This document shows positions 2,500 to 41,050 of a DNA stretch of 64,000 nucleotides, piece after piece. This DNA is from Struthio camelus (taxonomy: Eukaryota). Every line of letters starts with the position of its first letter. Position 1 is the first letter of the stretch. The stretch spans positions 709,359 to 773,358 of the forward strand of contig NC_090970.1 in assembly GCF_040807025.1 (NCBI RefSeq). The letters are read 5' to 3'. The notes beneath the pieces were generated by a model. That model was not told the DNA's origin. It made no database searches and saw only the letters and a program-made list of their open reading frames with translations. The position numbers and the translations under genes are program-made.

Positions 2500-4615
2500 G
2501 CGGGCCCAGGCGTCCGGGGCACGGGCAGGGGGGCCCAGGCGTCCGGGAAGGGGCCCAGGTGTCCGGGAGGGAGGGGCCCAGGTGTCCGGGGAGAGGGGCC
2601 CCGGCGTCCGGGGAAGGGGCCCAGGCGTCCGGGGAGGGGGCCCAGGTGTCCGGGGGGGGCCCAGGTGTCCGGGGAGGGGGCCCAGGTGTCCGGGGGAGGG
2701 GCCCAGGCGTCTGGGAAGGGGCCCAGGTGTCCGGGGAAGGGGCCCAGGCGTCCAGGAAGGGTCCCAGGTGTCCGGGAGGGGCCCAGGTGTCCGGGGCAGG
2801 GGCCCAGGCATCCGGGGAAGGGGCCCAGGCGTCCGGGGAGGGGCCCAGGTGTCCGGGGCAGGGACCCAGGTGTCCGGGGAGGGGGCCCAGGTGTCCGGGG
2901 GAGGGGCCCAGGCGTCCGGGGAGGGGCCCAGGGGTCCGGGGCAGGGACCCAGGTGTCCGGGGAAGGGGCCCAGGCATCCGGGGGAGGGACCCAGGCGTCT
3001 GGGAAGGGGCCCAGGTGTCCCGGGAGGGGCCCAGGCATCCGGGAAGGGGCCCAGGTGTCTGGGGAAGGGGCCCAGGTGTCCGGGGAGGGGCCCAGGCGTC
3101 CGGGTGAGGGGCCCAGGTGTCAGGGGAGGGACCCAGGTGTCCGGGGCAGGGACCCAGGTGTCCGGGGGAGGGGCCCAGGCGTCCGGGGCAGGGGCCCAGG
3201 CGTCCGGGGAGGGACCCAGGCGTCCGGGAAAGGGGCCCAGGCGTCCGGGGCAGGGGCCCAGGTGTCCGGGGCAGGGGCCCAGGCGTCCGGGGGAGGGGCC
3301 CAGGCGTCCGGGGAGAGGGGCCCCGGCGTCCGGGGAAGGGGCCCAGGCGTCCGGGGAGGGGGCCCAGGTGTCCAGGGGGGGCCCAGGTGTCCGGGGAGGG
3401 GGCCCAGGTGTCCGGGGGAGGGACCCAGGCGTCTGGGAAGGGGCCCAGGTGTCCGGGGAAGGGGCCCAGGCGTCCAGGAAGGGTCCCAGGTGTCCAGGGA
3501 AGGGGCCCAGGTGTCCGGGGCAGGGGCCCAGGCATCCGGGGAGGGGGCCCAGGCGTCCGGGGAGGGGCCCAGGTGTCCGGGGCAGGGACCCAGGTGTCCG
3601 GGGAAGGGGCCCAGGCGTCCGGGGGAGGGGCCCAGGCGTCTGGGAAGGGGCCCAGGTGTCCGGGGAGGGGCCCAGGCGTCCGGGCAAGGGACCCAGGCGT
3701 CCGGGGGAAGGGGCCCAGGAGTCCGGGGGAGGGGCCCAGGCATCCAGGGGAGGGGCCCAGGCATCCGGGGGAGGGGCCCAGGCGTCCGGGGGAGGGGCCC
3801 AGGCATCCGGGGGAGGGGCCCAGGCGTCCGGGGGAGGGGCCCAGGTGTCCGGGGGAGGGGCCCAGGCATCCAGGGGAGGGGCCCAGGCATCCGGGGGAGG
3901 GGCCCAGGCATCCGGGGGAGGGGCCCAGGCGTCCGGGGCAGGGGCCCAGGCGTCCGGGGAGGGACCCAGGCGTCCGGGGGAGGGGCCCAGGCGTCCGGGG
4001 CAGGGGCCCAGGTGTCCGGGGCAGGGGCCCAGGCGTCAGGGGAGGGACCCAGGTGTCCGGGGGAGGGGCCCAGGCGTCCGGGGAAGGGACACAGGCGTCC
4101 AGGGAGGGGCCCAGGTGTCCGGGACAGGGACCCAGGTGTCCGGGGAAGGGGCCCAGGCATCCGGGGGAGGGACTCAGGCGTCTGGGAAGGGGCCCAGGTG
4201 TCCCGGGAGGGGCCTAGGCATCTGGGAAGGGGCCCAGGTGTCTGGGGAAGGGGCCCAGGTGTCCGGGGAGGGGCTCAGGTGTCCGGGGAAGGGGCCCAGG
4301 CGTCCGGGGGAGGGACCCAGGCGTCTGGGAAGGGGCCCAGGTGTCCGGGAAGGGGGGCCCAGGCGTCCGGGGAAGGGGCCCAGGCGTCCGGGGGAGGGGC
4401 CCAGGCGTCCAGGGAGGGGCCCAGGTGTCCGGGGCAGGGGCCCAGGCGTCCGGGGGAGGGGCCCAGGCGTCCAGGGAGGGGCCCAGGTGTCCGGGGCAGG
4501 GGCCCAGGCGTCCAGGGAAGGGGCCCAGGTGTCCGGGGCAGGGGCCCAGGCGTCCAGGGAAGGGGCCCAGGTGTCCGGGGCAGGGGCCCAGGCGTCCGGG
4601 GCAGGGTCCCAGGCG
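2500..4615. repeat. 18-bp satellite family, plus-strand orientation GGGGCCCAGGCGTCCGGG (reverse complement of the major form), intronic
   Basis: About 115 units of roughly 18 bp. It yields collagen-like artefact ORFs in several frames. Confidence 0.9.
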
Positions 4616-4632
4616 TCCGGGGGCAGACGCAC

Positions 4633-4801
4633 CTGCTCGGCGGCCCGCGCCTGCTCGTGGGCCTCCAGGAAGTCGCCGGGGATGACGGAGGCGACGACGG
4701 TGAGGCCTCCGGCCGCCTTGAGCTGGGCGGCCACCGACAGCAGCCAGGGCTGCTTCACCCGCAGCTCCTCGTCCAGCTTGAGCAGCACCAGCAGCTGCGG
4801 C
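4633..4801 (-). CDS. SLC12A6: SLC12A6-like exon: (R)[56 protein letters not shown]
   Basis: Near-identical in pattern to [62 protein letters not shown]. Acceptor cccctccgcgcag, donor CAG|GTGCGT. 169 nt = 1 + 56 codons. Confidence 0.9.
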
Positions 4802-4891
4802 CTGCGCGGAGGGGCCCAGGCGTCCGGGAAGGCCCCGCAAGTTAAGCGAGGGGCGCGCGAGCACGGGGCCCAGGCGTCCGGGCGCGCTCAC

Positions 4892-4996
4892 CTCCAGTTC
4901 TTGCTGTACTGCGGCGCCTCCTCCAGCCGCAGCAGGGCGAAGTGGGCGGCGCTCAGCGACAGCCCCCGCAGCCCGTCCCCCCACTCCTTCTCCGCC
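4892..4996 (-). CDS. SLC12A6: SLC12A6-like exon: (G)[34 protein letters not shown](R)
   Basis: Matches [38 protein letters not shown]. Acceptor ccctttcccggcag, donor AG|GTGAGC. The stop seen in the ORF track at 4888 is intronic. 105 nt = 1 + 34 codons + 2. Confidence 0.9.
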
Positions 4997-5039
4997 CTGC
5001 CGGGAAAGGGCCCAGGCGTCCGGGTGGGGCCGAGACGGC

Positions 5040-5780
5040 TGAGTCGATAGGCACCCACGCACCCGGGGCGAGAGGGACCCAGGCGTCCGGGGAGGGGCCC
5101 AGGCGTCCGGGGAGGGGCCCAGGTGTCCGGGGAAGGGCCCAGGTGTCCGGGGAGGGACCCAGGCGTCCGGGAAGGGGCCCAGGTATCCGGGGAGGGGGCC
5201 CAGGTGTCCGGGGAGGGGGCCCAGGCGTCCGGGCAAGGGGCCCAGGTGTCCGGGGAAGGGCCCAGGCGTCCGGGGAAGGGGCCCAGGCGTCTGGAGAAGG
5301 GGCCCAGGAGTTCGGGGAAGGGGCCCAGGTGTCTGGGGAGGGGCCCAGGTGTCCAGGAAACGGGGCCCAGGCATCCGGAGGAGGGGGCCCAGGTGTCCGG
5401 GGCAGGGGCCCAGGTGTCCGGGGAGGGGCCCAAGCGTCCGGGGAGGGACCCAGGTGTCCGGGGAGGGGCCCAGGTGTCCGGGGAGGGGCCCAGGCATCCG
5501 GGGAGGGGGCCCAGGTGTCCGGGAGGGGGCCAAGTGTCTGGGGAAGGGACCCAGGCATCCAGGGAGGGGCCCAGGAGTCCGGAGAAGGGCCTGGGTGTCC
5601 GGGGGGCCCAGGCATCCGGGGAGGGGCCCAGGTGTCTGGGGAAGGGACCCAGGCGTCCAGGGAGGGGCCCCAGCATCCGGGGAAGGAGACCCAGGTATGC
5701 AGGGAAGGGACTTCAGCTGTCCAGGGAAGGGGCCCAGGTGTCCGGGAGGGACCCAGGTGTCCGGGGCAGGGGCCCAGGCG
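5040..5780. repeat. 18-bp satellite family (GGGCCCAGGCGTCCGG orientation), intronic
   Basis: Same unit as 2500-4615. Confidence 0.85.
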
Positions 5781-5790
5781 TCCGGCTCAC

Positions 5791-5910
5791 CCCTGGTACT
5801 CGATGTACTTGTAGACGGTGCCGGCGATGCCCAGGGCGATGGCGGCGCACGACCACGACGCGATGAACATGAGCACCAGGCACAACCCCGCTCCCGCCAG
5901 CGACAGCCCC
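5791..5910 (-). CDS. SLC12A6: SLC12A6-like exon (TM12): (W)[39 protein letters not shown](G)
   Basis: Matches [45 protein letters not shown]. Donor GG|GTGAGC. 120 nt, phases 2 -> 2. Confidence 0.9.
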
Positions 5911-5999
5911 CTGCGGGCACCCAGGCGTCCGGGAGGGGCCCAGGCATCCGGGCAAGGGGGACCCAGGCGTCCGGGAGGGGCCCAGGCGTCCGGGCTCAC

Positions 6000-6098
6000 C
6001 AGTGGTAGTAGGGCAGCCGGGGCCGCCAGGTCGGGGTGCGCAGGAGGCTCTGCAGGGCACACGCCAAGTTCACGGCCAGGTAACACGTCAGCAGGAAC
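6000..6098 (-). CDS. SLC12A6: SLC12A6-like exon: (V)[32 protein letters not shown](W)
   Basis: Matches KCC [34 protein letters not shown]. Acceptor cctgttctccccccactgacag, donor TG|GTGAGC. 99 nt. Confidence 0.9.
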
Positions 6099-6119
6099 CT
6101 GTCAGTGGGGGGAGAACAG

Positions 6120-9100
6120 GCCCGTGTTGACCCGTGTTGACCCACGTTGACTTGTGTTGAGTCACGTTGACTCATCTTAGCCCATGTTGACCCCTACTGA
6201 CCCCGTATAGACTTATGTTGGCCCATGTTGACTCTTGTTGACCCGTGTTGGCATGTGCTGACCCACATTGACCCATGTCGACCTCCGCTGACTGACGCTG
6301 AGCCCTCTTGACTCTCGTTGCACCATGCTGACTTGCGTAGACCCGTGTTGACCCGTGTTCACCCATGTTGAGTCACGTCGACTCATCTTAGCCCATGTTG
6401 ACCCTCTATAAACTCATGTTGACCCATGTTGATGCTTGTTGACCCACATTGACTCTTGTTGACCCGTGTTGGCATGTGCTGACCCACGTTGACCCACGTT
6501 GACTGACGCTGAGCCCTCTTGACTCTCGTTGCACCATGCTGACTCGCGTAGACCCGTGTTGACCCGTGTTGACCCACGTTGAGTCATGTCGACTCATCTT
6601 AGCCCATGTTGACCCCCTACAAACTCATTGTTGACCCATGTTGATGCTCGTTGACCCACGTTGGCCCATGTTGACTCTCCTTCACCTGTGTTGGCTCGCG
6701 TTGGCACGTGCTGACCCACGTTGACCCATGTCAACCACCGCTGACTGACGCTGAGCCCTCTTGACTCTCGTTGTGCCATGCTGACTCGCATACACCCGTG
6801 TTGACATGTGTCGGCACGTGTTGACCCATGTTCACTAGCTTTGAGGCAGCTTGTTGCACGGTGACTCGCGTTGGCCTATGTTGACCTGCGTTGAGCTGCG
6901 CTGACCCACGTTGACTCTTGTTCATCCAAGTTGACCCGTGCTGACTCACGTTGACCCCTGTTGATGCGTGTTGATATGTATTGACTCGCGTTGACCCATC
7001 TTGATGTGCGCTGGCCCACGATGGCCACTGCTGACCCATGGTGATGTGTCTTGGCGCGCATTGTTCACTCACGCTGACCTGTGTTGAGCCATGTTGACTT
7101 GTGTTGGCCCCTGCTGACCTGTGTGAGCTGCGCTGACCCAAGTCCACCCATGTTGACTTGTGTTGAGTCATGTTGATCTATGTTGAGTCATGTAGTTCAC
7201 TCACGTTGATCTGTCTTGAGGTGCATTGACCCATGTTGACGCTCGTTGCCCCACGTTGGCCCACAATGACTCTCGTTCACCTGTGTTGGCTCGCGTTGGC
7301 ATGTGCTGACCCACGTTGACCCATGTCGGCCTCCGCTGACTGACGCTGAGCCCTCTTGACTCTCGTTGCACCATGCTGACTCGCGTAGACCCGTGTTGAC
7401 CCGTGTTGACCCATGTTGAGTCACGTCGACTCATCTTAGCCCATGTTGACCCTCTATAAACTCATGTTGACCCATGTTGACGCTCGTTGACCCATGTTGA
7501 CTCTTGTTGACCTGTGTTGGCATGTGCTGACCCACGTTGACCTCCGCTGACTGACGCTGAGCCCTCTTGACTCTCGTTGCACCATGATGACTCGCGTAGA
7601 CCCGTGTTGACCCGTGTTGACCCACGTTGAGTCACGCCGACTCATCTTAGCCCATGTTGACCCTCTATAAACTCATTGTTGACCCATGTTGATGCTTGTT
7701 GACCCACGTTGGCCCATGTTGACTCTCCTTCACCTGTGTTGGCTCGTGTTGGCACATGTGCTGACCCACGTTGACCCATGTCGGCCTCCGCTGACTGACG
7801 CTGAGCCCTCTTGACTCTCGTTGCACCATGATGACTCGCGTAGACCCGTGTTGACCCGTGTTGACACATGTTGAGTCATGTCGACTCATCTTAGCCCGTG
7901 TTGACCCCTTATAAACTCATGTTGAACCATGTTGACGCTTGTTGGCCCATGTTGACTCTTGTTGACCTGTGTTAGCATGTGCTGACCCACGTTGACCCAT
8001 GTCGACCTCCGCTGACTGACGCTGAGCCCTCTTGACTCTCGTTGCACCATGATGACTCGCGTAGACCCGTGTTGACCCGTGTTCACCCATGTTGAGTCAT
8101 GTCGACTCATCTTAGCCCATGTTGACCCCCTATAAACTCATGTTGAACCATGTTGACGCTCGTTGACCCATGTTGACTCTTGTTGACCCGTGTTGGCATG
8201 TGCTGACCCACATTGACCCATGTCGACCTCTGCTGACTGACACTGAGCCCTCTTGACTCTCGTTGCACCATGATGACTCGCGTAGACCCGTGTTGACCCG
8301 TGTTCACCCATGTTGAGTCATGTCGACTCATCTTAGCCCATGTTGACCCCCTATAAACTCATGTTGAACCATGTTGACGCTCGTTGACCCATGTTGACTC
8401 TTGTTGACCCGTGTTGGCATGTGCTGACCCACATTGACCCATGTCGACCTCTGCTGACTGACACTGAGCCCTCTTGACTCTCGTTGCACCATGCTGACTC
8501 GCGTAGACCCGTGTTGACCCATGTTGAGTCATGTCGACTCATCTTAGCCCATGTTGACCCCCTATAAACTCATGTTGACCCATGTTGATGCTCGTTGACC
8601 CACGTTGGCCCATGTTGACTCTCTTTCACCTGTGTTGGCTCATGTTGGCATGTGCTGACCCACGATGACCCATATCAACCTCCGTTGACTGACGCTGAGC
8701 CCTCTTGACTCTCGTTGCACCATGCTGACTCGCGTAGACCCCTGTTGACCCGTGTTGACCCATGTTGAGTCACGTCGACTCATCTTAGCCCATGTTGACC
8801 CTCTATAAACTCATGTTGACCCATGTTGACGCTCGTTGACCCATGTTGACTCTTGTTGACCCGTGTTGGAATGTGCTGACCCACGTTGACCCATGTCGAC
8901 CTCCGCTGACTGACGCTGAGCCCTATTGACTCTCGTTGTGCCATGCTGACTCGCGTAGACCTGTGTTGATGCATGTTGGCACGTGTTAACCCATGTTCAC
9001 TTGCGCCGAGCACCGTTGACCCAGCTTGTTCCATGTTGACTCATGTTGACCTGCGCCGGCCCACGTTGACTCTTGTTCATCCAAGTTGACCCACGTTGAT

Positions 9101-10040
9101 GCATGTTGGTATGTGTTGACTCAGCTTCGCGTGCGCTGGCCCACGTTGGCTGCTGCTGACCCACGTCGACATGTCTTGACGCACGTTGACCACTGTTGAG
9201 CCATGCTGGCTCCTGCTGACCTGTGTGAGCTGCGGTGACCCGAGTCCACCCGTGTTGACTCATGTTGAGCTTGCTGACCCATGTTCACTCACGTTGATCT
9301 GTCTTGAGGCACACTGTCCCATGTTGACTCTTGTTGAGTCACGTTGGGCCGTGTTGACTTGTGTTGATGTGTGTTGGCCCGTGTTGACTGGTGTTGGTCC
9401 CTGTTGACCTATGCTGACCCATACTGACTCTTGTAGACCCACGTTGACCCAGGTTGACTCACGTTGACTCATACTGACCAGCGTTGATGTGTGTTGGGCC
9501 ACGTTGACTCCTCTTGAGCACAGCTGACCCACGTTGGCTTGTGTTGACCCACGTTGAGTCGTGTTGACCCGTGTCGGCTCACGTCAATTCATGCTGACCT
9601 GTCTTCACCCACATTGACTTGTCTTGTCCCGTGTTGACTTGCGTTGACTGGTGCTGACCCTTGTTGACCCCCTATTGAGCTGAGCTCACCCGTGTTGACC
9701 CACTTTGAACCACGTTGACTCCTGTCACTCCGTGTTGGCCCGTGTTGACTCACGTTGAGCTGTACTGACCCGTGTTGGCCCATGCTCGCTCCTGTTGACC
9801 CGTGAGGGGCTGTGTCGACTCGTGTTGACGCATGTTGACGTGTGTTGGCTCACGTTGACTCATGTCGACCAGTGTTGACCCATGTTGTTCCACGCTGACC
9901 CAGGTTGACTCGCGTTGACCCACGTGTGCACGTACAGCTCCCTTTCGGCTTATGCTGACACGTGTTGAATCGTGTTAACCCGTGTTGGCGCGTGTCAGCC
10001 TGTGTTGACCCTGATAGACTCCTTTTGACTTCTGCGGACT
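6120..10040. repeat. GTTGAC decamer-based satellite (YNCGTGTTGACCCR subunits of about 10-11 bp) organised in a 211-221-bp higher-order repeat. About 3.9 kb, filling one SLC12A6-like intron.
   Basis: Small minus-strand ORFs recur with 211-221-bp spacing (6172, 6383, 6594 ... 8328). It is A/T-richer than its surroundings. Confidence 0.85.
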
Positions 10041-10128
10041 CATATTGACCCGTGTTGATCCGCGTCACCCGATCCATTGCCCTCCTCACGTACCCGCACC
10101 CCCACCAACACGCGTGCACCCCACGTAC

Positions 10129-10247
10129 ACGGAGAAGATGGGCGCCACGAGGTCAAGGGAGGCCATGAGAACGCCCAGCTCGGAGATGGTGGCCGTCAAC
10201 GCCAGGGCCCAGACGGGCTCCCGGCCGTCCTCGCCAGGCGCCAGCAC
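10129..10247 (-). CDS. SLC12A6: SLC12A6-like exon (TM11): VLAPGEDGREPVWALALTATISELGVLMASLDLVAPIFS(V)
   Basis: Matches KCC [40 protein letters not shown]. Acceptor tgtccttcctccgcag, donor GT|GTACGT. The end coordinate was verified against the stop position of ORF-track entry 10086..10586. 119 nt. Confidence 0.9.
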
Positions 10248-10259
10248 CTGCGGAGGAAG

Positions 10260-10700
10260 GACACGCCACAACACGCTAAGGAGGAGGTGGAAGCGCGCCA
10301 CCCCGTGCCCTAAGATGCCATAACGTGCAGTGAAATGCAACAACACGTGACAACACGCAAGTGGCGGGGGAGGGCGGCGGGATGGTCCCCGTGCAACTGC
10401 GTGGCCTAAAATACTGTCAAGAATCCTAAAAGGTGGTGAAAGGCCACAACACGCGATAACACGCAGTAACACGCTAAGAGCAGAAGGGGTGGGGGAGGGC
10501 GTTAGAGCGCTCCTCACGCAACGATGGGTCCTAAAAGGCCCTAAAAAGCCCTCAAAGGCCCCCAAAACCCCCAAAGGCCCCAACACGTGATAACACGTGA
10601 TAACACGCTAAGACTGGAACCGGTAGGGGAGGGCGGCGGCACGTTCCCCATGCAACGCCATGGCCTAAAACACTCCAGAACCGCCTCGAACCGCCCCAAA
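10260..10700. repeat. About 180-bp tandem repeat rich in AACACG (…CAACACGTGATAACACGCTAAG…), 2-3 copies, intronic
   Basis: Direct visual repeats at about 10290, 10470 and 10600. Confidence 0.6.
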
Positions 10701-10759
10701 ATGCCCCCCACCGAGGCCCCCGGCGGGCGGTGCCGGGGGCCGACACGCGTGTGGCTCAC

Positions 10760-10934
10760 GTGGAGGCCGGGCAGGGCGCGGAGGCGCGCCAGGGCCCGCA
10801 GCTGCCCGGGGCCGGTGGCCAGGCAGCGCAGGCCGCCCCCGATGGCGGCCAAGGCGGCCCCGATCACGGCCACCACCGGCGAGGGCCAGGTCAGCGTCCC
10901 CAGCGACGGCGTCCCCCGCAGCGCCGCCCCGAAC
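10760..10934 (-). CDS. SLC12A6: SLC12A6-like exon (TM10): (K)FGAALRGTPSLGTLTWPSPVVAVIGAALAAIGGGLRCLATGPGQLRALARLRALPGLH
   Basis: Matches KCC [59 protein letters not shown] with the same spacing. Acceptor tccccacacgtgttccccggcag, donor CAC|GTGAGC. 175 nt. Confidence 0.85.
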
Positions 10935-10989
10935 CTGCCGGGGAACACGTGTGGGGACACGCGTGTGTGGCAGGCACACGCTGCGGACG

Positions 10990-12850
10990 TGGGGGCATTG
11001 GGGACCCAGATGAAGGGAGGACAGCGGGAACACGCTGGGGGACACGCGTGGGCACATGGGGACACGTGGGCGGGGGGGGAGCGCAAGGAGACATGGGGAT
11101 GTTGGGGCCCCATTGGGGACGTTGGGAACGCGCTGGGGACATTGGGGACCTGGAGATCCATCGGGGACCCATTGGGGACCTGGGGACCCATCACGGACCT
11201 GTTGGGGACGCGCCGGGGACGTAGGAGACCCGTAGGGGACCCATTGGGGACCCGCTGGGGACCTGGGGACGTGTTGGGGATGTCGGGGACATTGGGGACC
11301 TGCTGGGGATGTGTTGGGGACGCTGTGGACCCGGGGACGCGTTGGGGACACATCGGGGACCCGCTCGGGACATGCTGGGGACATGGGGGATGTCGGGGAC
11401 ACGTTTGGGACGTCAGGAACCCATTGGGGACCCATCGGGGACATCGAGGGACCCACTGGGGACATGTTGGGGACACTGGGGACCCAGGGGCATGCTAGAG
11501 ACACACTAGGGACCTACTGGGGACAGGTGTTGGGGACATGGGGACACATCGGGAACATGTCAGGGACCCGTCAGGGACCTAGGGGACACGTTGGGGACGT
11601 CGGGCACCCATTGGGGACGTGGTGGGGACATTTGGGGACACAGGGACGCGTTGGGGACATTGGGGACCCATTGGGGACGCGTTGGGGATGTGTTGGAGAC
11701 ACTGGGGACCCGAGGACCCGTTGGGGACGTCGGGGACCCGTTGCGGATGTGCTGGGGATGTTGGGGACCCAGGGACGTGTTGGGGACGTCAGAGACCTGT
11801 TGGGGATGTCGGGGACGTGTTGAGGACCCATTGGGGACATTGGGGACCTATCGGGGGGACCCATTGGGGACCTGGGGACGTGTTGGGGACATCGGGGACC
11901 CAACGAGGACGTGGTGGGGACGTCAGAGACCCATTGGGGACATTGGGAACCCATCGGGGGGACCTGTTGGGGATGTCGGGGACCCATTGGGGACCTGGGG
12001 ACATGTTGGGGACATCGGGGACCCAACGAGGACGTGTTGGTGACATCAGGGACCCATTGGGGACATTGGGGACCTATCGGGGGGGCCTGTTGGGGATGTC
12101 GGGGACCCATTGGGGACGCTGGGGACCTGGGGACATGTTGGGGACATTGGGGACCCAACGAGGACGTGTTGGTGACATCAGGGACCCATTGGGGACATTG
12201 GGGACCTATCGGGGGGGCCTGTTGGGGATGTCGGGGACCCATTGGGGACGCTGGGGACCTGGGGACATGTTGGGGACATCAGGGACCCAACGAGGACGTG
12301 GTGGGGACGTCAGGGACCCGTTGGGGACATTGGGGACCCATCGGGGGGACCTGTTGGGGATGTCAGAGACCCGTTGGGGACCTGGGGACGTGTTGGGGAC
12401 ATCGGGGACCCAACGAGGATGTGGTGGGGACGTCGGGGACCTGCTGGGGACCTGGGGATGTGTTGGGGACATCGGGGACCCAACGAGGACGCGGTGGGGA
12501 CGTCGGGGACCCAACGAGGATGTGGTGGGGACATCGGGGACCCGTTGGGGACCTGGGGACGTGTTGGGGACATCGGGGACCCAACGAGGACGTGGTGGGG
12601 ACGTCAAGGACCTGTTGGGGACATCAGGGACCTGTTGGGGACCTGGGGACATGTTGGGGACATCGGGGACCCAACGAGGACGCGGTGGGGACGTCAAGGA
12701 CCTGTTGGGGACATCAGGGACCTGTTGGGGACCTGGGGACGTGTTGGGGACATCGGGGACCCAACGAGGACGTGGTGGGGACATCAGGGACCCAACGAGG
12801 ACGCGGTGGGGACGTTGGGGACCCGCTGGGGACGTCGGGGACGTCGGGGA
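10990..12850. repeat. GGGGAC satellite (TTGGGGACRYN subunits, about 11 bp) with a longer higher-order period, intronic
   Basis: Dense GGGGAC recurrence across about 1.9 kb. It produces GT-dipeptide-rich artefact ORFs. Confidence 0.8.
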
Positions 12851-12867
12851 CGTCGGGGGCCACTCAC

Positions 12868-12950: not shown

Positions 12951-12954
12951 CTGA

Positions 12955-13866: not shown

Positions 13867-13899
13867 CTGCCGGACGCCGGGGCCCGCTCGGACGCCGGG

Positions 13900-31200: not shown

Positions 31201-34200
31201 CCCCGGACGCCTGGACCCCTCCCCCGGACACCTGGGCCCCTCCCCGGACGCCTGGGCCCCTCCCCGGACGCCTGGGTCCCCTCCCTGGACACCTGGGTCC
31301 CTCCCCGGACGCCTGGGACCCTTCCCCGGACACCTGGGCCCCTTCCCAGACACCTGGGCCCCTCCCCGGACGCCTGGGCCCCTTCCCGGACACCTGGACC
31401 CCTCCCCCAGACACCTGGGCCCCCTCCCTGGACACCTGGGCCCCTCCCCGGACACCCGGGCCCCTTCCCCAGACGCCTGGGCCCCTTCCCCGGACGCCTG
31501 GGCCCCTCCCGGACGCCTGGGCCCCTCTCCCCGCACACCTGGGTCCCTCTCCCAGACGCCTGGGCCCCTTCCCGGACACCTGGGCCCCTCCCCGGACACC
31601 TGGGCCCCTCCCAGACGCTTGGGCCCCTTCCCCGGACACGTGAGTCCCTCCCCGGACGCCTGGGTCCCCTGTCCCCAGACGCCTGGGCCCCTCCCCCGGA
31701 CGCCTGGGCCCCCTCCCCGGACACCTGGGCCCCTTCCCCGGACGCCTGGGCCCCTCCTCTGGATGCCTGGGCCCCATCTCCCGGACGCCTGGGCCCCTGC
31801 CCCGGACGCCTGGGTCCCTCCCCGGACACCTGGGCCCCTCCCCGGACACCTGGGCCCCTTCCCCGGACGCCTGGGCCCCCTCCCCGGACGCCAGGGACCC
31901 TTCCCCGGACGCCAGGGACCCTTTCCCGGACACTTGGGCCCCTCCCCGGACACCTGGGCCCCTCCCCCGGACGCCTGGGCCCCTCTCCCTGCACACCTGG
32001 GCCCCTCCCCGGACGCCTGGGCCCCTTCCCGGACACCTGGACCCCTCCCCCGGACACCTGGGCCCCTCCCCGGACGCCTGGGCCCCTCCCCGGACGCCTG
32101 GGTCCCCTCCCTGGACACCTGGGTCCCTCCCCGGACGCCTGGGCCCCTTCCCCGGACACCTGGGCCCCTTCCCAGACACCTGGGCCCCTCCCCGGACGCC
32201 TGGGCCCCTTCCCGGACACCTGGACCCCTCCCCCAGACACCTGGGCCCCCTCCCTGGACACCTGGGCCCCTGCCCGGACACCCGGGCCCCTTCCCCAGAC
32301 GCCTGGGCCCCTTCCCCGGACGCCTGGGCCCCTCCCGGACGCCTGGGCCCCTCTCCCCGCACACCTGGGTCCCTCTCCCAGACGCCTGGGCCCCTTCCCG
32401 GACACCTGGGCCCCTCCCCGGACACCTGGGCCCCTCCCAGACGCTTGGGCCCCTTCCCCGGACACCTGGGCCCCCTCCCCGGACACCTGGGCCCCTTCCC
32501 CGGACGCCTGGGCCCCTCCTCTGGATGCCTGGGCCCCATCTCCCGGACGCCTGGGCCCCTGCCCCGGACGCCTGGGTCCCTCCCCGGACACCTGGGCCCC
32601 TTCCCCGGACGCCTGGGCCCCTTCCCCGGACGCCTGGGCCCCTCCCCGGACGCCAGGGACCCTTCCCCGGACGCCAGGGACCCTTTCCCGGACACTTGGG
32701 CCCCTCCCCGGACACCTGGGCCCCTCCCCCGGACGCCTGGGCCCCTCTCCCTGCACACCTGGGTCCCTTCCCCGGACACCTGGGCCCCTTCCCCGGACAC
32801 CTAGGCCCCCTCCCCAGACAGCTGAGTCCCTCCCCCAGATGCTTGGGCCTCCTCCCCCGCACGCCTGGGCCCCTGCCCCGGACACCTGGGCCCCTCCCCG
32901 GACGCCTGGCCCCCTCCCCGGACGCCTGGGCCCCTCCCCCAGACATCTGGGCCCTTTCCCTGGACACCTGGGCCCCTTCCCTGGACACCTGGGCCCCTCC
33001 CCAGACACCTGGGTCCCCGCCCCGGACGCCTGGGTCCCTTCTCCTGGACGCCTGGGCCCCTCCCCCGGACGCCTGGTCCCGTTCCCCGGACACCTGGGCC
33101 CCTTCCTGGACACCTGGGTCCCTTCCCCGGACGCCTGGGCCCCTGCCCCGGACGCCTGGGCCCCCTCCCCAGACACCTGGGCCCCTCCCCAGACACCAGG
33201 ACCCCTCCCTGGACGCCTGGGCCCCTTTCCCGGACGCCTGGGCCCCTTCCCCGGACACCTGGGCCCCTTCCCCCGGACGCCTGGGCCCCTCCCCGGACGC
33301 CTGGGCCCCTTCCCGGACACCTGGGCCCCTCCCCCGGACGCCTGGGCCCCTCCCCGGACGCCTGGGCCCCTTCCCGGACACCTGGGCCCCTTCCCCGGAC
33401 ACCTGGGCCCCTCCCCGGACGCCTGGGCCCCTCCCCGGACGCCTGGGTCCCTTCTCCCGGACGCCTGGGCCCCTTCCCCGGACACCTGGGCCCCTTCCTG
33501 GACGCCTGGGTCCCTCCCCCGGACACCTGGGTCCCTTCCCCGGACGCCTGGGCCCCTTCCCCGGACACCTGGGCCCCTTCCGGGACACCTGGGCCCCTTC
33601 CCCGGACGCCTGGGCCCCTGCCCTGGACGCCTGGGCCCCTCCCCCGGACACCTGGGCCCCTTCCCCGGACGCCTGGGCCCCTCCCCCGGACACCTGGGCC
33701 CCTTCCCCGGACGCCTGGGCCCCTTCCCCCGGACGCCTGGGCCCCTCTCCGGACGCCTGGGCCCCTTCCCGGACACCTGGGCCCCTGCCCCGGACACCTG
33801 GGCCCCTCCCCGGACGCCTGGGCCCCTCCCCGGACACCTGGGTCCCTTCTCCCAGACGCCTGGGTCCCTTCTCTTGGACGCCTGGGCCCCTTCCCCGGAC
33901 GCCTGGTCCCCTTCCCCGGACACCTGGGCCCCTTCCTGGACACCTGGGTCCCTTCCCCGGACGCCTGGGCCCCTGCCCTGGACGCCTGGGCCCCTCCCCC
34001 GGACACCTGGGCCCCCTCCCCGGACGCCTGGGCCCCTTCCCGGACACCTGGGCCCCTCCCCCGGACACCTGGGCCCCTCCCCCGGACGCCTGGGTCCCTC
34101 CCCCGGACACCTGGGCCCCTCCCCGGACGCCTGGGTCCCTCCCCCGGACACCTGAGTCCCTCCCCGGACGCCTGGGCCCCTCCCCCGGACGCCTGGGTCC

Positions 34201-37200
34201 CTCCCCGGACGCCTGGGCCCCTCCCCGGACGCCTGGGCCCCTTCCCCGGACCCCTGGGCCCCTTCCCCGGACGCCTGGGCCCCTCCCCGGACGCCTGGGC
34301 CCCTTCCCCGGACCCCTGGGCCCCTTCCCCGGACGCCTGGGCCCCTCCCTGGACGCCTGGGCCCCCTCCCCGGACGCCTGGGTCCCTCCCCGGACGCCTG
34401 GGCCCCCTCCCTGGACGCCTGGGCCCCTCCCCGGACGCCTGGGTCCCTTCCCCGGACACCTGGGCCCCTTCCCCGGATGCCTGGGCCCCTCCCCGGACGC
34501 CTGGGCCCCTTCCCGGACACCTGGGCCCCTGCCCCGGACACCTGGGCCCTTCCCCGGACGCCTGGGCCCCTCCCCCGGACGCCTGGGTCCCTCCCCGGAC
34601 ACCTGGGCTCCTCCCCTCCCCACCCACCCGGACACCTGGGCCCCTTTCCCTGGATGCCTGGGCCCCTTCCCCAGACGCCTGGGCCCCCTCCCCGGACACC
34701 TGGGCCCCCTTCCCCGGACGCCTGGGCCCCTCCCCGGACACCTGGGTCCCTCCCCCGGACACCTGAGTCCCTCCCTGGACGCCTGGGCCCCTCCCCGGAC
34801 GCCTGGGCCCTTGCCCGGACGCCTGGGCCCCTCCCCGGACGCCTGGGCCCCTCCCCGGACACCTGGGTCCCTCCCCCGGACACCTGGGCCCCTTCCCCGG
34901 ACACCTGGGCCCCTTCCCAGACACCTGGGCCCCTCCCCGGACGCCTGGGCCCCTTCCCGGACGCCTGGACCCCTCCCCCGGACACCTGGGCCCCTCCCCG
35001 GACGCCTGGGCCCCTCCCCGGACGCCTGGGTCCCCTCCCTGGACACCTGGGTCCCTCCCCGGACGCCTGGGCCCCTTCCCCGGACACCTGGGCCCCTTCC
35101 CAGACACCTGGGCCCCTCCCCGGACGCCTGGGCCCCTTCCCGGACACCTGGACCCCTCCCCCAGACACCTGGGCCCCCTCCCTGGACACCTGGGCCCCTG
35201 CCCTGACACCCGGGCCCCTTCCCCAGACGCCTGGGCCCCTTCCCCGGACGCCTGGGCCCCTCCCGGACGCCTGGGCCCCTCTCCCCGCACACCTGGGTCC
35301 CTCTCCCAGACGCCTGGGCCCCTTCCCGGACACCTGGGCCCCTCCCCGGACACCTGGGCCCCTCCCAGACGCTTGGGCCCCTTCCCCGGACACGTGAGTC
35401 CCTCCCCGGACGCCTGGGTCCCCTGTCCCCAGACGCCTGGGCCCCTCCCCCGGACGCCTGGGCCCCCTCCCCGGACACCTGGGCCCCTTCCCCGGACGCC
35501 TGGGCCCCTCCTCTGGATGCCTGGGCCCCATCTCCCGGACGCCTGGGCCCCTGCCCCGGACGCCTGGGTCCCTCCCCGGACACCTGGGCCCCTCCCCGGA
35601 CACCTGGGCCCCCTTCCCCGGACGCCTGGGCCCCCTCCCCGGACGCCAGGGACCCTTCCCCGGACGCCAGGGACCCTTTCCCGGACACTTGGGCCCCTCC
35701 CCGGACACCTGGGCCCCTCCCCCGGACGCCTGGGCCCCTCTCCCTGCACACCTGGGCCCCTCCCCGGACGCCTGGGCCCCTTCCCGGACACCTGGACCCC
35801 TCCCCCGGACACCTGGGCCCCTCCCCGGACGCCTGGGCCCCTCCCCGGACGCCTGGGTCCCCTCCCTGGACACCTGGGTCCCTCCCCGGACGCCTGGGCC
35901 CCTTCCCCGGACGCCTGGGCCCCTTCCCGGACACCTGGGCCCCTCCCCGGACACCTGGGCCCCTCCCAGACGCTTGGGCCCCTTCCCCGGACACGTGAGT
36001 CCCTCCCCAGACGCCTGGGTCCCCTGCCCCGGACGCCTGGGCCCCTCCCCCGGACGCCTGGGCCCCCTCCCCGGACACCTGGGCCCCTTCCCCGGACGCC
36101 TGGGCCCCTCCTCTGGATGCCTGGGCCCCATCTCCCGGACGCCTGGGCCCCTGCCCCGGACGCCTGGGTCCCTCCCCGGACACCTGGGCCCCTCCCCGGA
36201 CGCCTGGGCCCCTCCCCGGACGCCAGGGACCCTTCCCCGGACGCCAGGGACCCTTTCCCGGACACTTGGGCCCCTCCCCGGACACCTGGGTCCCTTCCCC
36301 GGACACCTGGGCCCCTTCCCCGGACACCTAGGCCCCCTCCCCAGACAGCTGAGTCCCTCCCCCAGATGCTTGGGCCTCCTCCCCCGCACGCCTGGGCCCC
36401 TCCCCGGACGCCTGGGCCCCTTCCCCGGACGCCTGGTCCCCTTCCCCGGACACCTGGGCCCCTTCCTGGACACCTGGGTCCCTTCCCCGGACGCCTGGGC
36501 CCCTGCCCTGGACGCCTGGGCCCCTCCCCCGGACACCTGGGCCCCCTCCCCGGACGCCTGGGCCCCTTCCCGGACACCTGGGCCCCTCCCCCGGACACCT
36601 GGGCCCCTCCCCCGGACGCCTGGGTCCCTCCCCCGGACACCTGGGCCCCTCCCCGGACGCCTGGGTCCCTCCCCCGGACACCTGAGTCCCTCCCCGGACG
36701 CCTGGGCCCCTCCCCCGGACGCCTGGGTCCCTCCCCGGACGCCTGGGCCCCTCCCCGGACGCCTGGGCCCCTTCCCCGGACCCCTGGGCCCCTTCCCCGG
36801 ACGCCTGGGCCCCTCCCCGGACGCCTGGGCCCCTTCCCCGGACCCCTGGGCCCCTTCCCCGGACGCCTGGGCCCCTCCCTGGACGCCTGGGCCCCCTCCC
36901 CGGACGCCTGGGTCCCTCCCCGGACGCCTGGGCCCCCTCCCTGGACGCCTGGGCCCCTCCCCGGACGCCTGGGTCCCTTCCCCGGACACCTGGGCCCCTT
37001 CCCCGGATGCCTGGGCCCCTCCCCGGACGCCTGGGCCCCTTCCCGGACACCTGGGCCCCTGCCCCGGACACCTGGGCCCTTCCCCGGACGCCTGGGCCCC
37101 TCCCCCGGACGCCTGGGTCCCTCCCCGGACACCTGGGCTCCTCCCCTCCCCACCCACCCGGACACCTGGGCCCCTTTCCCTGGATGCCTGGGCCCCTTCC

Positions 37201-39135
37201 CCAGACGCCTGGGCCCCCTCCCCGGACACCTGGGCCCCCTTCCCCGGACGCCTGGGCCCCTCCCCGGACACCTGGGTCCCTCCCCCGGACACCTGAGTCC
37301 CTCCCTGGACGCCTGGGCCCCTCCCCGGACGCCTGGGCCCTTGCCCGGACGCCTGGGCCCCTCCCCGGACGCCTGGGCCCCTCCCCGGACACCTGGGTCC
37401 CTCCCCCGGACACCTGGGCCCCTTCCCCGGACACCTGGGCCCCTTCCCAGACACCTGGGCCCCTCCCCGGACGCCTGGGCCCCTTCCCGGACGCCTGGAC
37501 CCCTCCCCCGGACACCTGGGCCCCTCCCCGGACGCCTGGGCCCCTCCCCGGACGCCTGGGTCCCCTCCCTGGACACCTGGGTCCCTCCCCGGACGCCTGG
37601 GACCCTTCCCCGGACACCTGGGCCCCTTCCCAGACACCTGGGCCCCTCCCCGGACGCCTGGGCCCCTTCCCGGACACCTGGACCCCTCCCCCAGACACCT
37701 GGGCCCCCTCCCTGGACACCTGGGCCCCTGCCCGGACACCCGGGCCCCTTCCCCAGACGCCTGGGCCCCTTCCCCGGACGCCTGGGCCCCTCCCGGACGC
37801 CTGGGCCCCTCTCCCCGCACACCTGGGTCCCTCTCCCAGACGCCTGGGCCCCTTCCCGGACACCTGGGCCCCTCCCCGGACACCTGGGCCCCTCCCAGAC
37901 GCTTGGGCCCCTTCCCCGGACACGTGAGTCCCTCCCCGGACGCCTGGGTCCCCTGTCCCCAGACGCCTGGGCCCCTCCCCCGGACGCCTGGGCCCCCTCC
38001 CCGGACACCTGGGCCCCTTCCCCGGACGCCTGGGCCCCATCTCCCGGACGCCTGGGCCCCTGCCCCGGACGCCTGGGTCCCTCCCCGGACACCTGGGCCC
38101 CTCCCCGGACACCTGGGCCCCTTCCCCGGACGCCTGGGCCCCCTCCCCGGACGCCAGGGACCCTTCCCCGGACGCCAGGGACCCTTTCCCGGACACTTGG
38201 GCCCCTCCCCGGACACCTGGGCCCCTCCCCCGGACGCCTGGGCCCCTCTCCCTGCACACCTGGGCCCCTCCCCGGACGCCTGGGCCCCTTCCCGGACACC
38301 TGGACCCCTCCCCCGGACACCTGGGCCCCTCCCCGGACGCCTGGGCCCCTCCCCGGACGCCTGGGTCCCCTCCCTGGACACCTGGGTCCCTCCCCGGACG
38401 CCTGGGCCCCTTCCCCGGACGCCTGGGCCCCTTCCCGGACACCTGGGCCCCTCCCCGGACACCTGGGCCCCTCCCAGACGCTTGGGCCCCTTCCCCGGAC
38501 ACGTGAGTCCCTCCCCAGACGCCTGGGTCCCCTGCCCCGGACGCCTGGGCCCCTCCCCCGGACGCCTGGGCCCCCTCCCCGGACACCTGGGCCCCTTCCC
38601 CGGACGCCTGGGCCCCTTCCCGGACACCTGGGCCCCTCCCCGGACACCTGGGCCCCTCCCAGACGCTTGGGCCCCTTCCCCGGACACGTGAGTCCCTCCC
38701 CAGACGCCTGGGTCCCCTGCCCCGGACGCCTGGGCCCCTCCCCCGGACGCCTGGGCCCCCTCCCCGGACACCTGGGCCCCTTCCCCGGACGCCTGGGCCC
38801 CTCCTCTGGATGCCTGGGCCCCATCTCCCGGACGCCTGGGCCCCTGCCCCGGACGCCTGGGTCCCTCCCCGGACACCTGGGCCCCTCCCCGGACGCCTGG
38901 GCCCCTCCCCGGACGCCAGGGACCCTTCCCCGGACGCCAGGGACCCTTTCCCGGACACTTGGGCCCCTCCCCGGACACCTGGGTCCCTTCCCCGGACACC
39001 TGGGCCCCTTCCCCGGACACCTAGGCCCCCTCCCCAGACAGCTGAGTCCCTCCCCCAGATGCTTGGGCCTCCTCCCCCGCACGCCTGGGCCCCTCCCCGG
39101 ACGCCTGGGCCCCTCCCCGGACGCCTGGGCCCCTC
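28275..39135. repeat. Major 18-bp satellite array (GGACGCCTGGGCCCCTYCCC), about 10.9 kb, about 600 units, with nested higher-order periodicities of about 2.53 kb and about 3.7 kb
   Basis: Identical long peptides recur in the ORF track at 34477 and 37007 and at 35373 and 37903 (both pairs 2530 bp apart), and at 30783 and 34477 (3694 bp apart). The array fills the interval between the CRE/TATA promoter and the NOP10 polyA site. Confidence 0.95.
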
Positions 39136-39171
39136 CCCCAGGCGCAGCCACGTGCTCTCTCTGCATCATCC

Positions 39172-39177
39172 TTTATT
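39172..39177 (-). terminator. NOP10: NOP10 polyadenylation signal AATAAA (minus strand), about 180 nt after the stop
   Basis: TTTATT on the plus strand at 39172-39177, immediately adjacent to the end of the 18-bp satellite array. Confidence 0.7.
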
Positions 39178-39353
39178 CCCGCCGCCGCCGCGCGCCGCAG
39201 GGGGCGGAGCCCGGCCCCGCCCCCCCGCCATCGCCCCGCCCTGCCGCGCGGCGCCCGGGTGCGCGCGGCAGAGGCGTCCGGGCGGGCAGGGCGCGGCGGC
39301 GGCCGCGTTCCGGGCGCGCGCTGGTTCCGGCCGGGCCGGGGTCGGGGCCGGGC

Positions 39354-39494
39354 TCAGAGGAGCGGGCGCGGGCGCTGCGTGAGCAGGACGCCGAAGCGGC
39401 GCTTGAGGGCCAGGCGGTGCCGCGAGAACTTGTCGTCGGGCGAGAAGCGGGCCGGGTGCGCCGAGGCCGTCTGCCGCCCGTCCGGGGCCGCCTT
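39354..39494 (-). CDS. NOP10: NOP10 (H/ACA snoRNP subunit 3) exon 2: [46 protein letters not shown]
   Basis: Matches human NOP10 [41 protein letters not shown]. Stop TGA at 39356-39354 agrees with the ORF track. Exons 1+2 give 64 aa, the same as human. The acceptor cag at 39495-39497 is phase 0. Confidence 0.9.
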
Positions 39495-39529
39495 CTGCCG
39501 CGGGCCAGCGCGCTCCACCCGCCGCCCGC

Positions 39530-40380
39530 CCCGCCGCCCCGCTACCGGGACCCCCCGGACCCGGTTCCCCCCAGACCCCGATCTGCCCCGGTCCCGTTCC
39601 CCCCCGGTCCCGGTCCCCCCCGTTCCCGGTTCCCCCCTTTTCCGGTTCCCCCCTTTTCCGGTTCCCCCCGCTCCCGGTTCCCCCCTTTTCCACTTCCCCC
39701 CGTTCCCGTTCCCCCCCCGTTCCCGTTCCCCCCTGATCCCGGTCCCCCTGGTCCCGCTCCCCCCCCGGTCCCGCTCCCCCCGGTCCCGGTTCCCCCCCGG
39801 TCCCGCTCCCCCCGGTCCCGCTCCCCCCCGGTCCCGCTCCCCCCCGGTCCCGCTCCCCCCGCTCCCGCTCCCCCCCGGTCCCGCTCCCCCCCGCTCCCGG
39901 TTCCCCCCCGCTCCCGCTCCCCCCCCCGGTCCCGCTCCCCCCCGGTCCCGGTTCCCCCCCGCTCCCGCTCCCCCCCCCGGTCCCGCTCCCCCCCCGCTCC
40001 CGGTCCCCCCGGTCCCGCTCCCCCCCGGTCCCCCCCGCTCCCGGTCCCCCCCGCTCCCCCCCCCGGTCCCGCTCCCCCCCGCTCCCGGTTCCCCCCCGGT
40101 CCCGCTCCCCCCCCGCTCCCGTTCTCCCCCCGCTCCCGTTCCCCCCCGGTCCCGTTCCCCCCCCGCTCCCGCTCCCCCCCCGCTCCCGTTCCCCCCCGCT
40201 CCCGCTCCCCCCCCGCTTCCGGTCCCCCCCGCTTCCGGTCCCCCCCCGCTCCCGCTCCCCCCCGGTCCCGCTCCCCCCCGGTCCCGCTCCCCCCCCCGGT
40301 CCCGCTCCCCCCCCCGGTCCCGCTCCCCCCCCCGCTCCCGCTCCCCCCCCGGTCCCGCTCCCCCCCCGGTCCCGCTCCGG
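39530..40380. repeat. 12-bp C-rich tandem repeat (CCCGGTCCCGCTCCCC variants) making up essentially all of NOP10 intron 1
   Basis: About 70 units. It generates a long proline-rich artefact ORF on the plus strand. Confidence 0.9.
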
Positions 40381-40383
40381 TAC

Positions 40384-40437
40384 CTGCAGCGTGTACACCC
40401 GCTCCCCCCGCTCGTTCTCGTAGAACTGCAGGAACAT
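40384..40437 (-). CDS. NOP10: NOP10 exon 1: [18 protein letters not shown]
   Basis: Matches the NOP10 N-terminus MHLMYTLGPDGKRIYTLKK. ATG at 40437-40435. Donor CAG|GTACCG. The 889-bp intron is almost pure 12-bp repeat. Confidence 0.85.
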
Positions 40438-40531
40438 GATGTCGCCGCTGCCGCCGCCGCCGCAAGGTTCGCCGGGAAGGGGGGGGCGGGGCCGCACGGC
40501 ACCCTGGGACGGCGGCGGGGCGCGGGGCACG

Positions 40532-40547
40532 CTGGGAAGTGTAGTCC
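40532..40547. promoter_or_regulatory. ZNF143/THAP11 (SBS/M8-type) motif CTGGGAAGTGTAGTCC in the NOP10 / NUT-like bidirectional CpG-island promoter
   Basis: Matches the CTGGGARNTGTAGTY consensus, i.e. ACTACAnTTCCC on the other strand. It lies about 95 bp upstream of the NOP10 ATG on the minus strand. Confidence 0.55.
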
Positions 40548-40559
40548 TGGGGAGGGGCA

Positions 40560-41050
40560 CACCGGGCAGGGGCCCAGGCGTCCGGGGAGGGGCCCAGGTG
40601 TCCGGGGAAGGGGCCCAGGTGTCCGGGGAGGGGGCCCAGGCGTCCGGGTAAGGGGCCCAGGTGTCCGGGAGGGGCCCAGGTGTCCGGGGAAGGGGCCCAG
40701 GTGTCCGGGGAGGGGGCCCAGGCGTCCGGGAAGGGGCCCAGGCGTCCGGGGAGGGGGCCCAGGCGTCCGGGGAAGGGGCCCAGGCGTCCGGGGAGGGGGC
40801 CCAGGCGTCCGGGGAGGGGCCCAGGAGTCCGGGGAGGGGCCCAGGTGTCTGGGGAAGGGGCCCAGGAGTCCGGGGAGGGGCCCAGGTGTCTGGGGAAGGG
40901 GCCCAGGCGTCCGGGGAGGGGCCCAGGTGTCTGGGGAAGGGAACCAGGTGTCTGGCAAGGGGCCCAGGCGTCCGGGGAGGGGCCCAGGCATCCTGGGAAG
41001 GGGCCCAGGTGTCAGCAGAGGGGCCCAGGCGTCCGGGGAGGGGCCCAGGC
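40560..41050. repeat. 18-bp satellite family (GGGCCCAGGCGTCCGGGG orientation) inside the NOP10 / NUT-like divergent promoter interval
   Basis: Same family as the major array, about 27 units. Confidence 0.85.

Follow-up and report, generated by a model that had tools for sequence, protein, structure and literature searches.

A GC-rich 20/21-bp minisatellite family in introns and gene spacers of an ostrich microchromosome

The closest described setting for the repeats reported here is the dot chromosome of birds. In the zebra finch, more than 70% of dot-chromosome intron sequence consists of tandem repeats, chiefly G-quadruplex (G4)-enriched minisatellites whose unit length is a multiple of 10-11 bp (bioRxiv 10.1101/2025.10.17.683159), and degenerate minisatellites with 10-30-bp units account for 51% of dot-chromosome euchromatin, where they cause dropouts of HiFi coverage (bioRxiv 10.1101/2025.10.14.682431). 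Chicken dot chromosomes are rich in satellite DNA (PMC9974502), and the work on both species describes the compartment as transposon-poor (PMC9974502; bioRxiv 10.1101/2025.10.14.682431). Here, a stretch of 64,000 nucleotides of the ostrich, Struthio camelus (contig NC_090970.1, positions 709,359 to 773,358; hereafter the window, with positions counted from its first nucleotide), was analyzed for a dispersed, GC-rich tandem-repeat family. The family is real, has a unit of 20/21 bp and, on an ostrich microchromosome, occupies entire introns and spacers between genes. We consider it, with a probability of roughly 0.78, a non-coding minisatellite family and an ordinary member of the class known from bird dot chromosomes.

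Unit, extent and placement of the repeat family

The 18-mer GGACGCCTGGGCCCCTCC has 130 exact matches in the window, on both strands, against none in 100 dinucleotide-preserving shuffles, and 851 matches when up to three mismatches are allowed. All clusters of near matches are strand-pure (minus strand, 2498-5991, 40566-41054 and 59696-60589, the last with 28/29-bp spacing; plus strand, 13890-16399, 22302-23855, 24285-25158 and 28295-39136), small remnants lie at 25450-25493, 41131-41231 and 41396-41458, and Tandem Repeats Finder (TRF) recovers the same blocks. Split at exons and non-repeat gaps, these clusters form nine arrays (A1-A9, Table 1) with a total length of 19,853 bp, or 31% of the window, and the family occupies at least ten sites in both orientations within 60 kb. 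An earlier interpretation made from the letters of the window (the sequence-only reading) had described a dispersed family of at least nine arrays in both orientations covering about 19 kb, or about 30% of the window, and had noted a 29-bp derivative near 59700-60540. Each of these statements agrees with the measurements, the derivative having the unit GGACGCCTGGGCCCC + CCGGGAGCATCCCC. A supposedly single array at 23230-25110 is indeed repeat sequence, but consists of two arrays (23244-23855 and 24282-25158) separated by an SLC12A6 exon (~24046-24240).

The same reading had taken the unit to be 18 bp long, which does not hold. Unit-to-unit spacing is 20 or 21 bp in all main arrays and never 18, and the TRF periods of the family are 20, 21, 41, 62, 83 and 101. 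Units of the two lengths usually take turns along an array, so that a dimer measures 41 bp. The 18-mer is only the conserved part of this unit, the remainder, T(T)CCCC, being a short spacer of pyrimidines that varies; the tandem unit can be written (GGGGAGGGGCCCAGGCGTCC)n, and its near-invariant core is CC(C)GGACGCCTGGGCCC(C). G+C content ranges from 74 to 80% across the nine arrays and is put at ~78-80% for the family, and neighboring monomers are ~84% alike according to TRF.

Across 881 units, the non-CpG positions of the core are 97-99.8% invariant, except for a single site that carries C>T in 16%. Both CpGs vary (G>A in 39% at ACG; C>T in 8% and G>A in 8% at CCGG), and the observed/expected ratio of CpG in the arrays is 0.41-0.64; the two CpGs of each unit thus appear to decay by transition, as would fit germline methylation. 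No stretch of identical sequence common to two arrays exceeds 74 bp, nor do arrays have more than 14% of their 41-mers in common, so that the variant pattern of each array has arisen separately, without recent transfer between arrays.

Where arrays occur, they take up practically every base outside exons, splice signals and poly(A) signals. Overall, intronic arrays start 6-13 nt past the GT donor and stop 0-35 nt before the AG acceptor (splice boundaries are marked here by a slash). The donor GAGCAG/GTGCGT lies 12 nt ahead of the first unit of A1, whose last unit stops ~35 nt short of the acceptor, and the donor GTGAGCC directly abuts the first unit of A2, whose last unit lies 10 nt upstream of CAG/GG. 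At A3 the edge of the array itself forms the acceptor (...GGCGTCCGGCAG/GCC), while the donor CCAG/GTGAGAGC is 12 nt from the first unit of A6. Outside introns, the complement of the NOP10 AATAAA signal is found within ~40 nt of the right edge of A7. As had been proposed from the sequence, arrays thus lie both in introns (of SLC12A6, the NUTM1-like gene and TTC5) and between genes (A7 and A8), and orientation flips within one host gene, the SLC12A6 introns holding A1-A2 with a C-rich sense strand and A3-A6 with a G-rich one. The possibility that the repeat is coding was rejected: long open reading frames do cross the arrays, but this follows solely from the scarcity of stop codons at 80% GC; the 20/21 alternation breaks the frame, and splice signals bound the arrays.

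Two further observations concern array edges. The 38-nt string GGTGAGAGCGGGGGGCCCCGGCGTCCGGGCGGCACGGG, made up of a splice donor and the start of an array, occurs twice, at the real exon end at ~25.16 kb and at ~23.87 kb, where no exon was found (23826-23945 compared with 25129-25248), and looks like a local duplication of an exon-end/intron-start segment. Within 22984-23103, at the SLC12A6 exon encoding ...AIVSNGGLPA, no canonical GT donor was found ahead of the first unit of the repeat, and the closest GT is within the unit (GGC/GTCCGG); the splice site at this exon may be supplied by the repeat or be non-canonical.

Table 1 Arrays of the repeat family and genes in the ostrich window
Feature	Position	Strand	Description
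A1	2498-4615	-	~100 units, modal 21 bp (GGACGCCTGGGCCCCTTCCCC on - strand); fills SLC12A6 intron; sense strand C-rich
A2	5040-5785	-	~30 units, 20/21 bp; fills next SLC12A6 intron; sense strand C-rich; short remnant 5915-5995
A3	13870-16399	+	~124 units, modal 20 bp; fills SLC12A6 intron; G-rich on the gene's sense strand
A4	22279-23013	+	Degenerate units of 19-24 and 43 bp; SLC12A6 intron; G-rich sense strand
A5	23244-23855	+	Degenerate units; SLC12A6 intron downstream (gene order) of exon ~24046-24240; G-rich sense strand
A6	24282-25158	+	Units of 21/24/42 bp; SLC12A6 intron between exons ~25.2 kb and ~24.1 kb; G-rich sense strand
A7	28292-39139	+	~500-526 units of 20/21 bp, 10.85 kb; intergenic, NOP10 3' end to SLC12A6 5' end
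A8	40562-41054	-	22-24 units, 20/21 bp; between NOP10 exon 1 and first NUTM1-like exon seen
Mini-array	41396-41458	-	Three units inside short NUTM1-like intron
A9	59696-60589	-	30 units of 28/29 bp (GGACGCCTGGGCCCC+CCGGGAGCATCCCC); entire TTC5 intron 1; orthologous to emu array
SLC12A6 (KCC3)	1-25840	-	Continues past left window end; joined exons vs PDB by phmmer: human SLC12A6, E=4e-210
SLC12A6 exon-bearing pieces, left part	~509-805, 2221-2490, 4516-4887, 4891-5124, 5790-6101, 5999-6193, 10089-10607, 10544-11164	-	
SLC12A6 exon-bearing pieces, right part	12867-13277, 13646-13912, 17379-17651, 18910-19299, 22002-22322, 22970-23287, 23989-24324, 25115-25838	-	
NOP10	39250-40535	-	Exon 1 ~40.5 kb, exon 2 ~39.3 kb; from translations
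NUTM1-like exons	41270-41610	+	Pfam NUT PF12881, E=1.5e-19; PDB NUT family member 1, E=5e-9
TTC5	46141-60705	-	Exon 1 ~60605-60705; exon 2 from ~59667; TPR exon 47776-47895; OB-domain exon 46141-46320
CCNB1IP1 (HEI10) exons	62386-63075	-	100% identity to NCBI Struthio camelus CCNB1IP1 protein; next kiwi 92%, emu 90%

When compared with the dot-chromosome minisatellites of other birds, the family agrees in most respects. Its 20/21/41-bp periods fit multiples of 10-11 bp, the unit is within 10-30 bp in all main arrays, and in SLC12A6, NOP10 and TTC5 repeats extend through introns up to the splice signals. The setting is also alike, with degenerate arrays forming most of the intronic DNA of a gene-dense, very GC-rich, transposon-poor region and with strands rich in G or C runs: tandem repeats of many unrelated families, with periods mostly near multiples of 10-11 bp, make up 49.7 of the 64 kb (78% of the window), and GC content per kb is 53-82%, exceeding 70% over most of the window. 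In contrast to the known cases, the lineage is palaeognath, the sequence family is its own and canonical G4 motifs are nearly absent; of the other non-B motifs, direct repeats are present trivially. The chromosome record is 6.96 Mb long in the ostrich compared with 0.99 Mb for the syntenic emu record CM072425.1, a dot chromosome, and the ostrich chromosome is at most a candidate dot chromosome. The unit sequence was not found in the searchable literature, and the emu satellitome, which lists satellites of 31-5881 bp, does not include the family (PMC11036779).

The low number of G4 motifs bears on the suggestion that the G-run-rich strand has quadruplex potential. The standard motif (four G runs, each of 3 or more, with loops of 1-7 nt) has 0-13 matches per array; with loops of up to 12 nt there are ~20 per kb on the G-rich strand, with the layout GGGG-A-GGGG followed by an 11-nt loop. 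Mean G4Hunter scores of the arrays are ~1.0, with ~10% of 25-nt windows at 1.5 or above and 35% at 1.2 or above. Using ViennaRNA with quadruplex energies, the real sequence folded as inter-unit hairpins via the GGGCCC palindrome, both as DNA and as RNA, and a quadruplex was predicted solely for the idealized DNA consensus. The few canonical motifs and the hairpin folds do not support a strong G4 former, which leaves the suggestion weak; by these predictions G4 potential would be marginal, with hairpin or slipped-strand structures at least as likely. Elsewhere in the window, the C-rich arrays at 44859-46184 (31-bp unit CCCTCCCAGTGCCCCCAATCCCCCTCCCAGT) and 49216-51253 (15-bp unit CAACCCCACAACACC), in the 3' part of the TTC5 span and just past its last identified exon, average -1.9 and -1.6, respectively, by G4Hunter on the plus strand and are far stronger quadruplex/i-motif candidates.

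Higher-order structure and age of the arrays

Autocorrelation of the 10.85-kb array A7 gave peaks at lags of 3694, 2530 and 6224, the last being the sum of the other two. Diagonal run-length analysis combined with pairwise alignment resolved these into three copies of one ~3.7-kb block of ~180 monomers (copy A, ~29149-32946; copy B, 32947-36405; copy C, 36406-39139), with identities of 98.9% (A/B), 98.9% (A/C) and 99.5% (B/C). Copy C is 5'-truncated and lacks the first ~1.0-1.2 kb of the block, which explains why the distance from B to C is only 2530 bp. The copies differ by 13-40 substitutions and many insertions or deletions, which are mostly whole-unit multiples (19-22, 41-43, 60-63, 83-84 and 185 bp); a few others measure 1-11 bp. 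As the blocks are 98.9-99.5% alike, compared with ~84% for adjacent monomers, A7 contains a genuine higher-order repeat. The periodicities of ~2.53 and ~3.7 kb that had been reported for this array are therefore real as lags, but they are not nested, both arising from a single block in three copies of which the third is truncated. Similarly, the proposed recent expansion by unequal crossover finds support for the block, in its high identity and whole-unit insertions and deletions, but not for the family, which is old (see below).

Multi-monomer blocks, which characterize higher-order satellites, are thus found in A7, and A3 also has exact repeats at long lags (~990-1411 bp), a pentamer of 101 bp and internal repeats of ~1 kb and more. 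The duplication of ~180 diverged monomers as a block, with blocks ~99% and monomers ~84% alike, resembles alpha satellite and the chicken CNM repeat (PMC9974502). Unlike in these, A7 has ~2.7 copies of unequal lengths and lies between NOP10 and SLC12A6, not at a centromere.

The age of the family was assessed in other birds. At the emu CCNB1IP1 locus (on CM072425.1), where the gene order is TEP1-CCNB1IP1-TTC5 and 80% of the sequence is tandem repeat, 25 exact copies of the 18-mer were found, with arrays at 20/21-bp spacing on both strands. Eleven more arrays were present at a kiwi locus and at a second emu locus ~180 kb from the first on the same chromosome. Altogether, the 15 further arrays of emu and kiwi agree with those of the ostrich in modal core and in their 20/21-bp spacing, and they too occur in both orientations. 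In all 24 arrays of ostrich, emu and kiwi the modal core is GGACGCCTGGGCCC, with differences limited to CpG transitions and one C>T, while the spacers range from 5 to 29 nt; arrays in all species were found by searching with the core, except for the orthologous array in TTC5 intron 1, which was not ascertained in this way. The sequence-only reading had named absence of the family elsewhere as evidence against it; the family is instead present at two emu loci and on a kiwi contig.

In both ostrich and emu, TTC5 intron 1, located between alignable exons 1 and 2, is an array of the family, and both arrays have the private spacer GGGAGCA(T/G)CCCC, to which the emu array adds an extra TTTGGGGGGGGA. 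This array with its private variant therefore predates the ostrich-emu split, which lies tens of millions of years in the past. The family is old, and its arrays stay at the same sites over tens of millions of years. The KCC-like locus of the wheatear, the single neognath locus examined, reached by a homologue search with SLC12A6 exons that gave 3 matches, is 65% tandem repeat and contains no copy of the family. A scan of metagenomes for the dimer pattern gave 0 matches, and the kiwi contig carrying CCNB1IP1 was 64% N.

When translated array sequence was used as a protein query, only palaeognath gene models were matched, namely kiwi OSGEP and an emu importin-4-like protein, whose loci are the kiwi locus and the second emu locus described above. 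These public models contain translated minisatellite, that is, arrays mis-annotated as coding exons. The emu record CM072425.1 also carries two TTC5-like genes ~180 kb apart (14967-24485 of locus L001 and 31645-41403 of locus L004), and near the 5' end of each lies a form of the family with longer units (39-43 and 34 bp), pointing to a segmental duplication in which the array was copied as well.

Related repeats and competing explanations

Human hypervariable minisatellites (Jeffreys-type, e.g., CEB1 and MS32) have GC-rich units of 10-60 bp and strand asymmetry, lie at recombination-active, gene-rich sites, turn over by unequal exchange or conversion with array-specific interspersion of variant repeats, and are mostly single arrays with locus-specific units. 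The ostrich family resembles them in its GC-rich unit, strand asymmetry and array-specific variants. However, here one unit family occupies many neighboring introns and is common to long-diverged species.

The chicken repeats CNM and PO41 are similar in having a 41-bp period built from two ~20/21-bp halves, C- and G-rich strands, a location on small chromosomes and both orientations, and CNM also forms higher-order repeats. Identity with CNM was excluded, as the CNMpos 27-mer (bioRxiv 10.64898/2026.03.19.712899) matched neither strand of the window even with 8 mismatches allowed; moreover, CNM is centromeric or pericentromeric, whereas the arrays described here lie in introns and spacers of expressed-type genes. 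By its composition as published, PO41 is also a different repeat (63% GC (PMC3091757) compared with 74-80% here), and it is mainly subtelomeric (PMC3091757) rather than intronic or intergenic. A different repeat of the window comes nearer to CNM/PO41 than this family does: the 21/42-bp repeat GAACCCCCATTTCGCGGTCCC / GAACCCCCATTTTGGAGCCCC at 25825-26731 and 27392-27900, just upstream of SLC12A6 exon 1, has a GC content of ~64% (by hand count), so that its period and GC are as reported for PO41, and has the 9-mer CCCCCATTT in common with the chicken CNM probe, although the whole probe gave 0 matches at 8 mismatches.

If the family is an ordinary dot-chromosome minisatellite, its arrays would occupy whatever sequence is unconstrained, including whole introns and whole spacers. 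They would grow and shrink locally by replication slippage and by unequal exchange or gene conversion, a process we infer from the higher-order block and the whole-unit insertions and deletions, and which would yield both the array-specific patterns and the A7 block. GC-biased gene conversion may keep the near-all-G/C core intact, and the family would have no sequence-specific function.

Several points weigh against this explanation. Neutral drift alone does not obviously account for an identical 14-18-nt core in 24 arrays and three lineages whose spacers differ; part of this uniformity is an effect of ascertainment, but the TTC5 intron 1 case is not. Nor does this explanation account for the entry of the family into many introns in both orientations. 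Its absence at the wheatear locus indicates either that the family is not universal in birds or that it has been replaced there. Additionally, the ostrich evidence on distribution comes from this 64-kb window only, and the length and copy number of A7 rest on one assembly, in a sequence class prone to HiFi coverage dropouts (bioRxiv 10.1101/2025.10.14.682431).

The alternative that best survives, although we consider it unlikely, is that the core is a functional or self-promoting cis-motif (protein-binding, initiating recombination or gene conversion in birds, which to our knowledge lack PRDM9, or acting as an intronic splicing or RNA-binding element) and that the arrays are kept by selection or drive. 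The core GGACGCCTGGGCCC is identical in 24 arrays with spacers of 5-29 nt, its non-CpG positions are nearly invariant, and the orthologous TTC5 intron 1 arrays have a common private variant. Precedents exist in chicken, where 41-bp PO41 arrays coincide with the obligate chiasma site of chromosome 16 and also occur in inverted orientation (PMC3091757), and where C-rich transcripts of 41-bp repeats accumulate hnRNP K (bioRxiv 10.64898/2026.03.19.712899). However, no binding factor or motif match was established, detection of arrays through the core inflates its invariance, and GC-biased gene conversion alone would protect a core consisting almost entirely of G and C. Furthermore, the presence of both orientations in one gene argues against a strand-specific RNA role, and the family is absent at the wheatear locus. 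A version in which the 14-18-nt core CCCCGGACGCCTGGGCCC is a sequence-specific functional or driving element of small palaeognath chromosomes, its arrays kept since before the ostrich-emu split while spacers evolve freely, seems improbable to us.

Assembly artefact, with mis-joined or duplicated reads accounting for the size and higher-order structure of A7 or for parts of other arrays, is very improbable. Minisatellites of this type do give strong HiFi dropouts on dot chromosomes (bioRxiv 10.1101/2025.10.14.682431) and a single assembly was used. Nevertheless, the three block copies are not identical, differing by substitutions and whole-unit insertions and deletions, and three species, each assembled independently, all carry the family, so that this explanation could at most concern the length and copy number of A7. 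A transposon carrier, with the arrays as the internal tandem-repeat part of a mobile element (as in the SVA VNTR or satellite-carrying Helitrons or DNA transposons), was rejected on the flanks and placement of the arrays and is highly doubtful: its sole support is the dispersal over at least ten sites in both orientations within 60 kb, whereas the unit-oriented 250-bp flanks of the nine arrays have nothing in common other than leftover units, low-complexity GC-rich sequence and the overlap of flanks where arrays are adjacent, the arrays directly abut exons and splice signals, one is orthologously placed in emu, and the compartment is described as transposon-poor in zebra finch and chicken.

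Taking the family as an ordinary dot-chromosome minisatellite, the architecture of minisatellite-filled introns known from zebra finch and chicken would extend to the deepest-branching living bird lineage. At least one family of this kind, and even one array-specific variant, has been in place since the palaeognath radiation, with turnover slower than usually assumed for minisatellites. The arrays would also explain the difficulty of assembling and annotating genes such as SLC12A6, NOP10, TTC5 and CCNB1IP1 in birds. No new mechanism is opened by the finding.

Host genes and other repeats of the window

Exons of the host genes were located using third-codon-position GC periodicity together with open reading frame pieces (Table 1). 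The gene at 39250-40535 was recognized as NOP10 by the resemblance of its translations to the human NOP10 protein, and the assignment of TTC5 was supported by a match to TTC5 in PDB (E=1e-12) and by the annotation of the emu locus, which carries Pfam TTC5_OB. The best 120 homologues of CCNB1IP1 came from palaeognaths, reptiles, mammals, amphibians and fishes, and none of them was from a neognath bird; in neognaths the gene is either absent or unannotated in assemblies, or lost. Rfam at gathering thresholds identified no structured RNA in the window, and no telomeric or centromere-type sequence was seen in it.

Several of the other repeat families also lie in or next to these genes. The single intron of NOP10 contains an entirely different 16/33-bp array (39551-40378, CCCCCCGGTCCCGCTC, ~50 copies). 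In an SLC12A6 intron, a 3.8-kb array at 6121-9922 has a degenerate 10-bp period (CCCATGTTGA) with a 221-bp higher-order unit and a GC content of 53-56%, far below its surroundings. Minisatellites with periods of 114, 72/105 and 101/126 bp (16640-17421 in SLC12A6, 41764-42680 in NUTM1 and 61615-62167 in CCNB1IP1, respectively) all bear GCCGCCATCTT / AAGATGGC(GGC), a motif that we take to resemble the YY1 consensus; the 54 AAGATGGC sites in the window are concentrated in these three blocks, and comparable GGCCATTTTG / GCCGCCATGGTGG repeats are found at the emu and kiwi CCNB1IP1 loci. Finally, GGGGAC-type minisatellites with 10/11/20/31-bp periods (TGGGGACGTCGGGGACCCGT) lie in an ostrich SLC12A6 intron (11163-12858), and the wheatear KCC-like locus carries GGGGACATT and GTGTCCCC arrays (26871-28031 and 18503-19413); the ostrich and wheatear repeats may reflect either a common older family or convergence.

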